Shown in pieces: positions 9,468 to 14,620 of a DNA stretch of 32,431 nt (positions are counted from its first letter, which is position 1; every line of letters starts with the position of its first letter). Both the position numbers and the translations under genes were made by a program. This DNA is from Nitrospirota bacterium. GTDB lineage: Bacteria > Nitrospirota > Thermodesulfovibrionia > Thermodesulfovibrionales > JdFR-85. A model generated the notes under the pieces. It did not search any database, was not told the DNA's origin, and saw only the letters and a list, made by a program, of their open reading frames with translations. The stretch covers positions 1-32,431 of the forward strand of contig WFTX01000234.1 in NCBI GenBank assembly GCA_015485235.1, given 5' to 3'.

Positions 9468-10148
9468 CTATCTGAAACACGCAGCTACAGTACTCTGAGC
9501 CTCCTGCCTGTCGTTTCTGTACACCTTGCGCGCAAAGGGACAGATGTTTACGCAAAGACCACAGTTGGGTTTGTTTTCAAAGAGAATGCGTGTTTTCTTG
9601 AGGGAGCGGCACTTTTCGTATCTCACAACCTCGATGAAAGGTTTCTCCCTTGACCAGATCCTTCCCGTCAGGGCCTCCGAGGGGCAGTGACTTACGCAGA
9701 GATTGCAATCCTTGCAAAGTGATTCGGTTATGGGAGTTCCCGGCGTGAAAGGGGCATCTGTCAGGACTGTAGCCCATGAGAGTTTGGGGCCGTATTTCTT
9801 ATTGATTACGAGGCCGTTCTTGCCGATCCATCCAAGGCCGGCACAGGTGGCGGCGGTTTTATGACTGAAGAGATCATACAGACGGGATGCAAACTTCCCG
9901 TTCCGCCTGTCTGAGTCCGGGGGGATTGAAAAGAATCTGAATCCCCTTTCCCTCAACCAGTTTTCAGCCAGGCCCTGAAGCCTTAACAGGAGACCTACAG
10001 TCTCACTGTTCAGATCCTTCCTGACAGCGATGGAAATACCCCGGTTGAGATGGGATAGTTCGGGTGGAAGGGCATCGGAGATATCACCAACTCCTGCAAG
10101 CGATGCCCCTTCCCGGATGAGTATCTCTTCAAGTAAATAGAAGGTCAA
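9468..10148 (-). CDS. 4Fe-4S dicluster protein related to the epoxyqueuosine reductase (QueG) / reductive dehalogenase family
   Basis: 226 aa. The HKTAATCAGLGWIGKNGLVINKKYGPKLSWATVLTD segment resembles the QueG core. Motif CKDCNLCVSHCP and a second cluster motif C...NCGLCVNICP are present. Its start overlaps the corrinoid-protein stop by 4 nt. Confidence 0.55.
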   Translation of the reverse strand: MTFYLLEEILIREGASLAGVGDISDALPPELSHLNRGISIAVRKDLNSETVGLLLRLQGLAENWLRERGFRFFSIPPDSDRRNGKFASRLYDLFSHKTAATCAGLGWIGKNGLVINKKYGPKLSWATVLTDAPFTPGTPITESLCKDCNLCVSHCPSEALTGRIWSREKPFIEVVRYEKCRSLKKTRILFENKPNCGLCVNICPFARKVYRNDRQEAQSTVAACFR

Positions 10149-10834
10149 CGCTTTTTTGCCTCCGCCTCGTCACGCATCTTCTTGAGTGCAGAAACCATGT
10201 TAATAGCCTCCTGGAGCGCATTGTTTGCGTCAGGGGCATATCCATCGGCACCCCACTTGTCGGCGACCTCTTTGGAGACAGGGGCACCACCGATCATTAT
10301 CTTCACATCTGGGTTCTTCTCCCTCAACTTCTCGATCACTTTCTGCATCCCGACCATTGTAGTTGTCATCATGGCTGAGAGGCAGACAAGGTCAGAGTCG
10401 GTCTTGATCTGCTCCTCAACGAACTTGTCGAGGGGAACATCTCTTCCAAGGTCATAAACGTTGAACCCTGCCACGTCAAACATCATCTTGACGATGTTCT
10501 TCCCGATATCATGGACGTCGCCTTCGACAGTCCCGATAACCACTGAACCCTTGACTCCGAGGTCCATCTGTTTCACATGGGGCTTCAGGATGTCAAGACC
10601 TGCATAGAGTGCATCGGCACACATCAGAAGCTCCGGAACAAAGTACTCCTGGGCCTCGAAGAGCCTGCCGACCTCTTCCATCCCTGAGACGAGTCCGTCG
10701 AATATGGCCTCGTTGGCATCCATTCCTACATCGAGGGCCTCCTGGGCGGCCTCCTTGACACCGTCCTCGTCATACTCGATGACGCAGTTTTTGAGTTTTT
10801 CCAGGATTTCCTGTTTCTTCTCTTCTGTTACCAT
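10145..10834 (-). CDS. Cobalamin-binding corrinoid protein (MtaC/MtbC/MtgC type)
   Basis: 229 aa. It has an N-terminal helical B12-binding-2 cap and then a Rossmann B12 domain with the base-off/His-on motif GTVEGDVHDIGKNIV plus SAMMTTT...GGAP. Confidence 0.9.
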   Translation of the reverse strand: MVTEEKKQEILEKLKNCVIEYDEDGVKEAAQEALDVGMDANEAIFDGLVSGMEEVGRLFEAQEYFVPELLMCADALYAGLDILKPHVKQMDLGVKGSVVIGTVEGDVHDIGKNIVKMMFDVAGFNVYDLGRDVPLDKFVEEQIKTDSDLVCLSAMMTTTMVGMQKVIEKLREKNPDVKIMIGGAPVSKEVADKWGADGYAPDANNALQEAINMVSALKKMRDEAEAKKR

Positions 10835-10837
10835 AGC

Positions 10838-12964: not shown

Positions 12965-13480
12965 TTAGAATACACCGTGATCGAACTTCGGCGGAGGGAG
13001 ATACTCCCAGTCCTCTCCGGCGATTATCTTCTGGGCGAGTTCAACACACTTGACCGCATATTCAAAGGCATAGGGGATACCAGGGCCGTTCGGTACAAAG
13101 CCTGCAAGAAGGCATCCTATCCCTGCCGCCTCGAAGACCTCTTCCACTGTAGCTCCAGCCTTGACAGCAGGGTAGACATGGATGATACAGCGGGGTGACA
13201 TGTAGGCGACTCCGCCTGCCATGAAAATGAGTTCCTTAACCTTTCTTGAGAGTGCACCGTCCTGCCAGAACGAATTGTAGAAATCAGCAAAGGTCTTTCC
13301 CGCCTCTGGATTCAGCTGGTTGATGATCTTGAACATCCTCGGCGTGAAGAGCATCTTCTCTTCCATGTACTGATTGGCCTCTTCCGGGGTCATCTTTTTT
13401 TCCTCTGACATGCTAACCTCCCTTTCTGGATTTTCCGGCTTCATAGCCAGGAACTTCTTGAGACTTTCCAAAATCCCCAT
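12965..13480 (-). CDS. Carboxymuconolactone decarboxylase (AhpD-like) family protein
   Basis: 171 aa. The CMD-domain-like segment is ALSRKVKELIFMAGGVAYMSPRCIIHVYPAVKAGAT. It has a single Cys and a His rather than the AhpD CxxC. A GGGGAGG ribosome-binding site lies 6 nt upstream of the ATG at 13480. Confidence 0.65.
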   Translation of the reverse strand: MGILESLKKFLAMKPENPEREVSMSEEKKMTPEEANQYMEEKMLFTPRMFKIINQLNPEAGKTFADFYNSFWQDGALSRKVKELIFMAGGVAYMSPRCIIHVYPAVKAGATVEEVFEAAGIGCLLAGFVPNGPGIPYAFEYAVKCVELAQKIIAGEDWEYLPPPKFDHGVF

Positions 13481-13588
13481 ACGAACCTCCCCTTAAGGGT
13501 TTGATTGACTGCTCTCTCTCATTTCACCTCCCTTGCCGCGTGATATTGGTCAGACTCTCCAGAAGATCAGGATCAAGGAGAGTCTCTA

Positions 13589-14620
13589 TCAAGAGAGCTT
13601 CCACTCTCTTGCTATGCTTATAAACTTCTGGATATTTGCATAAGGCACCGTTGGAGGAATATCACAGCCCGGCATGAGCACAAAGCCGCCGTCGGTCCCG
13701 GCAGTCTCGATTATCTGCCGGCAAGTGCTGTCCACATCTTCAGGAGAGCCCTGGAGCATGACTGCCACTGGATCAACATTGCCAGCAAAACAGATCTTGC
13801 CATGGAGCACCTCTTTTGCCTTGCCGATATCAGTCTTGTGATCAAGACTGATACAGTCTGCCCCTGTCTCAGGAAAGAGTTCGAGCCTGTCCGTAGTGTT
13901 GCCGCATATATGGAGCAGGGTATAGGCATTCTTCGACCTTGCCCAGTCTGTAAATTTCTTGAGGGCGGGGACTGCAAACTTTGCAAACTGCCTTTTGGAT
14001 ATCAGGTCACCCGAGGCGGTTGGATCGGCCAGGCTTATGACCTCAATAGTCCCGTCGTCAACAAGAGGTTCATACAGGTGTATCAGAAGGTCGGTGGCGA
14101 AATCTATCACCTTCTCGACAAAGGCGGGTTTTTTGAATGTTGCCTTCATCATCTCCTCTTCTCCTACAAATCTTGCACCAAGAGTGAAGGGACCCCATGC
14201 AGTCATGGTAACAACATAGGTATCTCCGATCTTCTCCTTTGTCTTTCTGAGTGCCTCCTTTACAACATTGATGGTGTCATCCTTGTCAATATCAGCGATA
14301 TTGAGCTTTGCAAGATCCTCTTCAGAGTGTACAAGGGGTTCTTCGAGGTCAGGCGCACCGATCTCCCTGAACTTGATCCGCCCTCCAAGGGCGGAGGCAT
14401 GAAAGTTGTTGTATCCTGAGCCTGCATAAACGATATCGCAGGCGAGTTTCTCGCTCATGGCAACAAGCATGTCCGTCATCTTGTCAGGGTCTGTGGCGAG
14501 TTCCTTGAATGTGGTCCCATACTCACGTATACTCCACATTCCTCCACCGAATAGTGTTACAGGAACTCTTTCCGGCTTCCCCCCTTTAAAGGCTGTGAGA
14601 ATAGTTTCTTTTGGTGTCAT
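13589..14620 (-). CDS. UroD-fold (MtaA/CmuA-family) methyltransferase, second copy
   Basis: 343 aa. The N-terminus is MTPKETILTAFKGGKPERVPV. Motifs: LLHICGNT and LMPGCDIPPTVP (the same H-x-C...C pattern). It is diverged from the 10838-11872 copy. Confidence 0.8.
   Translation of the reverse strand: MTPKETILTAFKGGKPERVPVTLFGGGMWSIREYGTTFKELATDPDKMTDMLVAMSEKLACDIVYAGSGYNNFHASALGGRIKFREIGAPDLEEPLVHSEEDLAKLNIADIDKDDTINVVKEALRKTKEKIGDTYVVTMTAWGPFTLGARFVGEEEMMKATFKKPAFVEKVIDFATDLLIHLYEPLVDDGTIEVISLADPTASGDLISKRQFAKFAVPALKKFTDWARSKNAYTLLHICGNTTDRLELFPETGADCISLDHKTDIGKAKEVLHGKICFAGNVDPVAVMLQGSPEDVDSTCRQIIETAGTDGGFVLMPGCDIPPTVPYANIQKFISIAREWKLS

Follow-up and report, generated by a model that had tools for sequence, protein, structure and literature searches.

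A sigma-54-controlled operon of uncultured Nitrospirota joins corrinoid methyltransferase genes to coenzyme M-type genes and suggests a soluble counterpart of the Mtr reaction

Results

We analysed a window of 32,431 nt from an uncultured, sulfur-cycling Thermodesulfovibrionia bacterium (Nitrospirota), and especially the interval 10145-14620 on its minus strand, where five genes lie that were recognised with Pfam and NCBIfam E-values of 1e-24 to 1e-107. These encode UroD1 (343 aa, 13589..14620; Pfam URO-D over the full length, E=9e-67), an AhpD/CMD-family protein (171 aa, 12965..13480; Pfam CMD), an MtrH-like protein (321 aa, 11901..12866; Pfam MtrH, E=8e-57), UroD2 (344 aa, 10838..11872; URO-D, E=5e-76) and a corrinoid protein (229 aa, 10145..10834; Pfam B12-binding and B12-binding_2). 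The open reading frame (ORF) of UroD2 spans 12016..10838, but its credible start is the Met at 11872, 28 nt past the MtrH stop. The initial annotation of this DNA had proposed that two UroD-fold proteins, an MtrH-like protein and a corrinoid protein form a possible soluble analogue of the Mtr reaction, in which a methyl group passes between a pterin and a thiol such as coenzyme M (CoM). All four elements were found on the minus strand with the motifs that had been quoted, whereas the AhpD/CMD gene between UroD1 and MtrH had been overlooked and the block turned out to be the upstream part of a single long operon, which had gone unrecognised. A Gram-negative bacterial host is borne out by the TonB receptor, sigma-54 and NiFe-hydrogenase genes of the window.

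The five genes are the upstream part of a run of 14 co-directional genes (15008-1646, minus strand) with intergenic gaps of -25 to +249 nt, which forms one sigma-54-controlled operon. At its head lies a sigma-54 (-24/-12) promoter-like site, TGGCATCGGAATTGC (15005..15019, minus strand), and the first gene is a small receiver-domain-like ORF (14586..15008, minus strand) with a weak, sub-cut-off match to Pfam Response_reg (18.8 bits). We searched for the exact pattern TGGCAY-N5-TTGC up to 900 nt upstream of UroD1, and it was present in 40 of 55 orthologous loci compared to 3 of 988 control windows, mostly about 385-430 nt upstream of the gene. A homologue of the receiver-like ORF (113-140 aa) occupies the same position in 42 loci.

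Both UroD-fold proteins hold the H-x-C...C pattern claimed for them, UroD1 in LLHICGNT and MPGCDIP (ligands His237, Cys239 and Cys319) and UroD2 in VIHICGKT and WPGCDIW (His243, Cys245 and Cys321). The residues align with HICGN and PGCGI of the Methanosarcina mazei MtaA structure (4AY7) and are invariant in 62 UroD1 and 81 UroD2 orthologues. In 41 relatives that are 27-49% identical to UroD1, both Cys likewise never vary, and the His is kept in at least 90%. The conservation of this His/Cys/Cys set is far beyond chance. UroD1 and UroD2 are 32% identical, and MtaA, MtbA and MtsA differ from one another by about as much. UroD2 scored above the MtaA/CmuA family cut-offs (TIGR01463, 260.7 bits, cut-off 235.4; NF004889, 289.4, cut-off 244), whereas UroD1 stayed below both (197 and 182.3, respectively). 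Neither reached the MtaA and MtbA equivalog models NF040654 and NF041608, whose cut-offs are 400 and 600 (255 and 201 for UroD2; 161.5 and 158.6 for UroD1). By sequence search of the PDB, MtaA (4AY7) was by far the top match to both (E=7e-50 for UroD2, which is about 30% identical to it, and E=4e-30 for UroD1). The only other corrinoid methyltransferase of the UroD fold matched there was CdmB, the chloromethane methyltransferase of A. dehalogenans, weakly by UroD1 (E=8e-6) and not by UroD2. The AlphaFold model of UroD1 (pLDDT 96.8) had MtaA 4AY7 as its top structural match (TM 0.89-0.91), ahead of HemE. From this model UroD1 appears akin to an MtaA-type enzyme in fold, yet by cut-off it falls outside the MtaA/CmuA family.

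A neighbour-joining tree was built with MtaA, the N-terminal domain of CmuA, HemE and the uncharacterised UroD proteins of two mlp-type clusters as references. The UroD2 clade had 100% bootstrap support and was sister to a branch with MtaA and one Mlp type, the joint clade reaching 95%. UroD1 and its Chloroflexota orthologues formed a group close to a different Mlp type, in a part of the tree where the deep nodes are unsupported. CmuA fell outside both clades, and a search of plasmids with UroD2 gave distant matches only, among them CmuA at 24%. UroD2 is thus a candidate CoM methylase, predicted from its sequence to be an MtaA-clade Zn methylcobamide:thiol methyltransferase, and UroD1 would be a Zn-type corrinoid methyltransferase of an Mlp-like branch. 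The phrase "two MtaA-like enzymes" in the initial annotation suits UroD2, by cut-off as well as by tree, but was overstated because UroD1 fails the MtaA/CmuA cut-off and sits in a different, Mlp-like branch. We also noted eleven positions at which the UroD2 clade is invariant and agrees with MtaA but differs from the UroD1 clade. Among them are H49, E69, P74, E82 and G125-R126-x-P128, the last being a GRIP motif with a conserved Arg, and all eleven are candidate residues of a CoM pocket.

The MtrH identity of the third protein stood up, as NF002142 matched above its cut-off and across the full length (358.8 bits, cut-off 287, residues 6-309). The protein failed the equivalog models for MtrH of the Mtr complex (TIGR01114, 173.8 vs 271.4) and for MtgA (NF047990, 165.4 vs 550), and its PDB matches were 8Z9U_B (186.7 bits), MtgA 6SJ8 (139.1) and MtrH of the Mtr complex, 9QTP (139). 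It is of the soluble type represented by MtgA and MtoA, and a predicted methyl-corrinoid:pterin methyltransferase with tetrahydrofolate (THF) as the pterin. Methyl-corrinoid and THF are the substrates of the soluble homologues MtgA and MtoA, of which MtoA does not accept CoM. Pfam and NCBIfam scans found no match to Mtr subunits besides MtrH among the ORFs of the window or the related loci, and a true Mtr complex was rejected on this ground. The DxHxxG (base-off/His-on) motif that had been assigned to the corrinoid protein is present as DVHDIG, and the protein passes TIGR02370 (219.5 bits, cut-off 215.3) with 1Y80 and MttC 7XCN as PDB matches. The AhpD/CMD protein carries a conserved SPRCxxH, and its top PDB match is AhpD 5DIK.

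Genes for activation of the corrinoid protein follow on the same strand. A 2x[4Fe-4S] protein (9468..10148; Fer4_16, partial RDH and QueG matches), kin to the Fe-S part of QueG/RdhA, is conserved across the Nitrospirota loci and is inferred to be the probable electron donor of the next gene product, a RACo-type activase (7245..9218). The activase has all four domains, namely the 2Fe-2S ferredoxin, the linker, the middle and the ASKHA C-terminal domain (Pfam Fer2, RACo_linker, Raco_middle and RACo_C_ter, the last with E=5e-101), and scores below the AcsV model (498 vs 800). Almost always beside RACo is a DUF6951 protein (6927..7241; Pfam E=1e-31), in which three Cys and one His (G.CG ... C ... 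H..CPVP) are kept across two phyla, and which may be a small metal or Fe-S protein in corrinoid reactivation. The operon continues with FolD, a methylene-tetrahydrofolate dehydrogenase/cyclohydrolase (5921..6868), which has both Pfam domains and matches the NCBIfam FolD models with up to 319 bits, under their cut-offs. FolD lies inside the operon in only about 8 loci, and a methylenetetrahydrofolate reductase (MTHFR) gene, which is missing in the window itself, lies just upstream in 14 other loci. Divergent from the operon is a CobW/COG0523 GTPase gene (15521..16438, plus strand; partial CobW and ZigA matches), found at this position in 20 loci. Subfamily 13 of COG0523 is known to co-localise with genes for Zn-dependent corrinoid methyltransferases (PMC2770081), and the protein is a candidate Zn chaperone for both predicted Zn methyltransferases.

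The last two genes of the operon are of the CoM type. Cysteate synthase (2746..4002, minus strand), which forms cysteate from O-phosphoserine and sulfite, scored 490.7 bits with the TIGR03844 equivalog (cut-off 324.9). The fused sulfopyruvate decarboxylase ComDE (1646..2770, minus strand), which leads to sulfoacetaldehyde, passed with both halves (TIGR03846, 228.3, cut-off 221.5; TIGR03845, 166.1, cut-off 147.95) and failed the phosphonopyruvate decarboxylase model. The window thus uses the cysteate route of the Methanosarcinales type. Orthologues of the first enzyme are named "cysteate synthase" by NCBI and JGI, and a homologue search with it returned close Nitrospirota orthologues only, which is silent on the origin of the gene. 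Candidates for the thiolation that would follow are DsrE-like sulfur carriers and the HdrD-like enzyme. A DsrE-family gene lies in the window outside the operon, where it directly follows an OsmC-like peroxidase gene (OsmC-related model and translation) in the same frame past a TGA stop, the two together at 20186-21121 on the plus strand. Its homologue at locus L078 (12480-12896) stands between cysteate synthase and ComDE, and the protein is a possible sulfur donor for the thiolation step.

Between FolD and cysteate synthase lie the genes for a NarI/DsrM/HdrE-like membrane cytochrome b (5214..5912, minus strand) and an HdrD-like Fe-S protein with 2x[4Fe-4S] and two CCG domains (4022..5221, minus strand; Pfam CCG and Fer4_8). 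The HdrD-like protein matched TfrB best in NCBIfam (195.9, cut-off 385) and then DsrK (91), neither at cut-off. The cytochrome b had a weak DsrM match (51 vs a cut-off of 300) with conserved His ligands, and its Chloroflexota counterpart matches Pfam Nitrate_red_gam. An HdrD-like gene occurs in 38 of 50 Nitrospirota loci and in the fusion-type loci of Chloroflexota described below. In some Nitrospirota loci a second NarI-like and HdrD-like pair was observed between DUF6951 and the first pair (L053 14922-16975, L070 14812-16862 and L032 19421-20683).

UroD2 orthologues with 74-91% identity came from 80 Thermodesulfovibrionia genomes at the species level, and over 100 additional metagenomic protein clusters contained more of them. 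Operons of this type are common in uncultured Nitrospirota of groundwater, peat, paddy soil and sediments. Synteny was followed by tblastn of all window proteins against the orthologous loci. Across the 80 genomes the order UroD1, CMD, MtrH, UroD2, corrinoid protein, Fe-S protein, RACo and DUF6951 was nearly invariant. Of the Nitrospirota loci, the 50 that extend 6 kb or more past RACo were taken as informative, and in 40 of them cysteate synthase and/or ComDE followed downstream on the same strand, in agreement with the earlier suggestion that the module fits the thiol/sulfonate and Hdr-like genes behind it. Contamination or mis-binning of archaeal-type genes was rejected, because in 40 species-level genomes these genes share their contigs with the module and keep their order. 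Near-identical proteins labelled as Betaproteobacteria, Rokubacteria or Acidobacteriota are probably binning errors.

Relatives of UroD1 were sought among 1.84 billion representative proteins, and the nearest beyond Nitrospirota belong to Chloroflexota/Anaerolineales (43-49% identity); the Chloroflexota orthologues of UroD1 span 42-49%. The AhpD/CMD gene adjoins UroD1 in the clusters of both phyla, and two types of context were seen in Chloroflexota. In the fusion type (L084/L092, L086 and L087) the order is CMD, UroD1-like, DUF6951 and RACo, then an ATP-binding cassette (ABC) importer of the NitT/TauT type, an MtrH::UroD2 fusion, the corrinoid protein, and NarI-like and HdrD-like genes, the last two standing beside Rieske/cytochrome b/c genes in L086 and L087. 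The fusion protein (662-672 aa; L084 11872-13866, L086 10001-11998, L087 9900-11888) is found in six Chloroflexota protein clusters. Its UroD2-type domain is 54% identical to UroD2, and its C-terminal half scores above the MtaA/CmuA family cut-off. At the level of sequence this fusion is the strongest sign that the two methyltransferases serve the same corrinoid protein, and MtrH and UroD2 would share one reaction because they are fused in one protein, as are the corresponding domains of MetH.

In the xcb type (L085/L090 and at least 10 of 33 analysed metagenome contigs of at least 8 kb) the module is co-directional and interleaved with xcbA, comA/xcbB, xcbC, xcbD and xcbE, for example in the orders CMD-XcbA-ComA-XcbC-XcbD-XcbE-UroD1-...-RACo-UroD2-CP-MtrH and UroD2-CP-XcbA-ComA-MtrH-XcbC, where CP is the corrinoid protein. 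XcbA (428, cut-off 150), ComA (302, 280) and XcbD (659, 600) exceed their NCBIfam cut-offs, and the xcbABCDE set is 50-53% identical to the genes of Xanthobacter Py2. Among 72,556 plasmids, the top matches of the XcbD-like and XcbE-like genes were the CoM loci of Xanthobacter Py2, Mycolicibacterium NBB4 and Nocardioides JS614. The xcb pathway has been described and yields CoM itself, not sulfoacetaldehyde (PMC9457059). No genes for alkene monooxygenase, epoxyalkane:CoM transferase or 2-ketopropyl-CoM carboxylase were found alongside the Chloroflexota xcb/methyltransferase clusters. FolD adjoins xcbA in L114, and OsmC and TusA-DsrE also flank Chloroflexota clusters. Upstream of several of them (L090 972-6363, L108 1927-6048, L127 15-3479) we observed a conserved set of genes for a TusA-DsrE fusion, a heme-copper oxidase subunit I with FixO, and one or two CMD proteins, with two OsmC genes in L090 and L108, which hints at a link to oxygen/peroxide defence or sulfur relay.

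Several neighbours of the operon may be involved in its regulation. In 28 loci the cluster has a sigma-54 activator as a neighbour, and the NifA-like sigma-54 enhancer-binding regulator of the window (18418..19920, plus strand; NCBIfam matches) is a candidate activator of the operon. An NMT1/SsuA-like binding protein (28652..29560, minus strand) and a PAS/GAF histidine kinase (29620..32121, plus strand), both identified by domain matches, probably form a sensor pair, and such a pair adjoins the operon in L001, L002 and other loci. A NitT/TauT-type ABC importer lies inside many clusters. An Rfam scan of the whole window (E<=0.1) showed no relevant riboswitch or other RNA control.

Discussion

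The genes described above seem somewhat more probably than otherwise to encode a soluble corrinoid-dependent system for methyl transfer between THF and CoM, or a very similar sulfonated thiol, which would be a cytoplasmic counterpart of Mtr. The idea of a soluble Mtr analogue gains from the placement of UroD2, the soluble type of MtrH, the fusion and the double association with CoM genes, which makes the link to CoM much stronger than could be seen in the initial annotation, and a part of it that did not stand is UroD1 as an MtaA-like enzyme. Two unrelated CoM pathways, each embedded with the same module in a different phylum, argue that CoM or a close relative is a substrate or cofactor of the module. 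The pterin is likely to be THF, since we are dealing with a bacterial host whose operon includes FolD, since MTHFR adjoins the operon in 14 loci and since FolD stands beside xcbA in L114.

Domain identities, metal ligands, operon structure, synteny, the fusion and the association with two sets of CoM genes were observed directly; concerning substrates, accessory roles and the direction of flow, the following is what we infer. Methyl-THF and the corrinoid protein, which would cycle between Co(I) and methyl-Co(III), would exchange the methyl group through the MtrH-family protein, and the corrinoid protein and the thiol of CoM would do so through UroD2. UroD1 could couple a further small substrate to this corrinoid protein, either a methylated sulfur or selenium compound or sulfide/selenide. 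Accidentally formed Co(II) would be re-reduced by RACo, with the 2x[4Fe-4S] protein and DUF6951 as its probable suppliers of electrons. Cysteate synthase and ComDE would make sulfoacetaldehyde, the direct precursor of CoM, to be thiolated perhaps by DsrE-like carriers or the HdrD-like enzyme. The HdrD/cytochrome-b pair may tie the thiol/disulfide pool to the quinone pool, and the sensor kinase with its binding-protein system is predicted to switch on the operon from the sigma-54 promoter.

As to direction, methyl-THF to CoM is the thermodynamically easy one. We nevertheless lean slightly towards a catabolic, inducible role, because of the sigma-54/two-component control, the importer, the FolD and MTHFR genes alongside and the respiratory genes in Chloroflexota. 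The presence of genes for oxidation of C1-THF also resembles the cmu clusters. In such a flow the methyl group would enter at UroD1, exchange with CoM and drain through UroD2 and MtrH to THF, and methyl-THF would be oxidised by MTHFR and FolD, which amounts to a reverse Mtr reaction without a sodium pump. A further and rather doubtful step is that Thermodesulfovibrionia and some Chloroflexota make CoM and run a methyl-CoM-centred energy metabolism without Mcr, such as respiratory oxidation of dimethyl sulfide (DMS), methanethiol or a related methyl-sulfur compound via a soluble reverse-Mtr-like route with HdrDE-type coupling to quinones; reductive disposal of methyl-CoM by a non-Mcr enzyme would be a bolder variant.

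Several observations weigh against a THF:CoM methyl system. The free energy of methyl transfer from methyl-tetrahydromethanopterin to CoM is reportedly about -30 kJ/mol by Thauer's values, and flow from a thioether to folate would therefore be strongly uphill without energy coupling. The reverse direction would need very low methyl-THF or a strong pull, for example quinone-linked oxidation of methyl-THF. With a single corrinoid protein, CoM is formally dispensable for transfer from substrate to THF, and neither Mcr nor another known consumer of methyl-CoM was seen in the DNA examined. Among the window ORFs we found no match to an MMP16/ComF-type enzyme that would lead from sulfoacetaldehyde to CoM, nor to a cysteate aminotransferase. 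Ten of the 50 informative Nitrospirota loci had no CoM genes in the DNA examined (seven of the ten carry an in-cluster ABC transporter, as might be expected if the cells either made or imported the compound, but several of these loci are cut off, and other loci have both), and the same was true of the fusion-type loci of Chloroflexota. In the xcb type, XcbC (572) and XcbE (406) fell just below their NCBIfam cut-offs of 575 and 450. All the genomes are metagenome-assembled. Homology cannot fix the thiol either, since MtaA accepts many thiols (PMC13618148). Finally, CmuA, which acts on chloromethane, also has His-x-Cys...Cys, and therefore the motif alone is no proof of a thiol substrate, just as the initial annotation had cautioned.

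The thermodynamic difficulty is shared by a fairly unlikely alternative, a methylotrophic demethylase without a methyl-CoM step, in which UroD1 and UroD2 would be entry enzymes for methyl-sulfur, methyl-selenium or methyl-halide compounds, MtrH would pass the methyl group to THF, and CoM would be a low-molecular-weight thiol for the AhpD- and OsmC-like peroxidases, re-reduced by HdrD/cytochrome b; its thioether-to-folate transfer is uphill. It stays alive because the surroundings of the clusters repeatedly contain CMD, OsmC and DsrE/TusA genes, with a cbb3-type oxidase as well in Chloroflexota, and it is in line with the FolD/MTHFR genes and the importer, with the metal motif of CmuA and with relatives of UroD1 in type-1 mlp clusters that have been tied to methyl-sulfur/selenium metabolism. 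PMC12713407 reports that overexpression of comDE shields methanogens from oxidative stress. However, the MtrH::UroD2 fusion and the position of UroD2 beside MtaA indicate that UroD2 is the thiol-cofactor partner of MtrH and not a second entry enzyme, and the xcb genes lie between the methyltransferase genes, not merely near them. The easy direction would suit a split MetH-like or salvage thiol methylase, which would carry the methyl group from methyl-THF via the corrinoid to homocysteine, sulfide or a common thiol for methionine synthesis or salvage or for formation of methanethiol or DMS, with sulfoacetaldehyde destined for taurine, isethionate or sulfonolipid. The module does mirror MetH in its Zn thiol, pterin and B12 domains and in activation, its corrinoid protein matches the B12 domains of MetH, and methionine salvage is the role that Kountz and Balskus suggest for related mlp clusters. 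We consider this decidedly improbable all the same, as it leaves unexplained that the module is embedded with CoM pathways in both phyla and that these two pathways are not homologous, as well as the HdrD/cytochrome-b pair and the inducible sigma-54 control with a sensor, and the Xcb route gives CoM itself rather than sulfoacetaldehyde (PMC9457059).

Recovery of selenium is very improbable. In that case UroD1, UroD2 or both would demethylate dimethylselenide or methylselenol with THF or CoM taking the methyl group, an activity proposed for Sdm of Methanococcus voltae and for type-1 mlp clusters. The in vitro methylation of selenide by ClMlp2 with methylcobalamin, which runs opposite to the demethylation proposed for the cell (PMC10418091), and neighbours from families with selenoprotein members (OsmC-related, GSU3128/CMD and CobW-related models) agree with it. 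Salvage of a trace element would not, however, need FolD, MTHFR, HdrDE or a dedicated cofactor pathway, and neither selenocysteine machinery nor an in-frame TGA was present in the genes examined. An aryl-methyl-ether O-demethylase of the Mto/Mtv/Odm type, with the UroD-fold pair as the ether-cleaving MT-I, has hardly any likelihood and was rejected on metal ligands and similarity, although an MtrH-type MT-II, a corrinoid protein and RACo are shared with MtoABCD. In the UroD superfamily His-Cys-Cys marks S/Se-methyltransferases, whereas the characterised O-demethylases replace one or both Cys with carboxylates and are about 17% identical to the MtaA-like proteins (PMC10418091); both proteins here keep His-Cys-Cys, and the weak match of UroD1 to CdmB has no equivalent in UroD2. 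Neither protein clusters with aryl-ether or methanol components, one part of the result by which the initial annotation would have given up its idea, because the O-demethylases carry carboxylates where UroD1 and UroD2 have retained the His-Cys-Cys set.

If the THF:CoM reading is correct, the system has the same proposed net chemistry as the Mtr complex (MtrA-H) of methanogens, in which an MtrH-family protein acts between pterin and corrinoid and the methyl group goes on to the CoM thiol. Mtr is, however, membrane-bound and sodium-pumping, whereas the window has no MtrB-G-like proteins; the corrinoid carrier here is a soluble MtaC/MtbC-type protein instead of MtrA, the CoM half-reaction would be carried out by a UroD-fold Zn enzyme instead of MtrE, the pterin would be THF, and the host is a bacterium without known Mcr. 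CmtA (MtsF) of Methanosarcina acetivorans is said to have been proposed as a soluble methyl-tetrahydrosarcinapterin:CoM bypass. With the methanogen MT2 enzymes (MtaA, MtbA, MtsA/MtsB and MtpA/MtpC) the UroD proteins share the UroD-fold Zn(His-Cys-Cys) site and, as predicted, the exchange of methyl between corrinoid and CoM or a methyl-thioether, but they are bacterial, paired with an MtrH-type folate methyltransferase and not feeding Mcr. The clusters of MtoABCD in Methermicoccus and of MtgABC in Desulfitobacterium similarly each unite a soluble MtrH-family enzyme with a corrinoid protein and a RACo-type activase. Their entry enzymes are the O-demethylase MtoB or the MttB-family MtgB with no thiol involved, and unlike the present operon they have no CoM-biosynthesis or HdrDE-like genes. 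MetH follows the same logic in one chain, and the MtrH::UroD fusion recreates its Zn-thiolate and pterin domains with unrelated folds. Reactivation here is ATP/RACo-dependent, whereas that of MetH depends on S-adenosylmethionine, and the genomic context points to CoM, not homocysteine. The CoM metabolism of alkene/epoxide oxidisers (xcbABCDE and epoxyalkane:CoM transferase) shares the xcb set with the Chloroflexota relatives, in which corrinoid methyltransferase genes accompany it instead.

The type-1 mlp clusters of non-methanogens (PMC10418091; Kountz & Balskus, bioRxiv 2023), for which a role in methyl-sulfur/methyl-selenium metabolism was proposed, also combine several His-Cys-Cys MtaA-like UroD proteins with a corrinoid protein and RACo. 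One mlp-cluster protein shares 40% identity with UroD1. The core parts of these clusters are present here, with UroD2 beside the MtaA/Mlp branch and UroD1 near another Mlp branch in the tree with uncharacterised mlp-cluster proteins. In contrast to the present operon with its MtrH-like protein, type-1 clusters typically have no folate methyltransferase, and the operon further adds CMD, DUF6951, HdrDE-like and CoM genes. PMC10418091 names neither MtrH, CoM biosynthesis nor Nitrospirota. A 40%-identity relative of UroD1 was observed in a typical mlp cluster of locus L097 (logan DRR609296_48, 3615-13917), together with NifH-like and two nitrogenase-like (Oxidored_nitro) genes, a pyridoxal phosphate enzyme and NMT1-type transporters, which is the methylthio-alkane-reductase-associated cluster type of Kountz and Balskus.

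We found no description of such a cluster in Nitrospirota or Chloroflexota in the searchable literature, and public pipelines label these genes merely "MtaA", "MtaA/CmuA family" or "cysteate synthase". CoM is regarded as a cofactor of methanogens and alkane archaea, with alkene/epoxide oxidation as the sole accepted bacterial role (a 2026 paper). The operon ties CoM synthesis to corrinoid methyl transfer and folate C1 metabolism, has a counterpart in Chloroflexota and points to an undescribed bacterial use of CoM. If this is true, methyl-CoM chemistry extends to two bacterial phyla, and the Mtr reaction would gain a soluble model of minimal size that comprises a natural MtrH::MtaA-type fusion for biochemistry and biocatalysis. 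There would also be a candidate route by which anaerobic bacteria turn over methylated sulfur or selenium compounds. Matches to mtaA, mtrH and comDE in metagenomes would then have to be used with caution as markers of methanogens. If the methyl-CoM-centred energy metabolism also proved true, these bacteria could be the long-sought non-methanogenic consumers of methyl-sulfur in freshwater anoxic sediments.

Some minor observations concern the remaining window and the copy number of the cluster. Another sigma-54-type site, TGGCATTAAAATTGC (1493-1507, minus strand), lies in the 318 nt that separate ComDE from the hydrogenase gene; downstream of it is this gene, which encodes a NiFe-hydrogenase small subunit (1327..233), and the hydrogenase may be under the same type of control as the methyltransferase operon. 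About 12 kb of the window (~16500-28600) are absent from the closest syntenic loci L001 and L002, which have just one MTHFR gene in the stretch from CobW to the NMT1-like binding protein. Within the 12 kb of the window are the OsmC-like genes, the sigma-54 activator, a kinase/response-regulator pair, DUF362-ferredoxin, and a TonB-dependent receptor with a YfiR-like protein and a kinase (TOL_0243/0244 families). Two copies of the cluster, L034 and L026, occur in the metagenome-assembled genome MFD10007.bin.2.159. In L034 the MtrH is seemingly truncated, with its C-terminal part running in frame into UroD2, and its UroD1 is 46% identical to that of the window; this copy may be a paralogous cluster in decay or divergence, or else an artefact of assembly.

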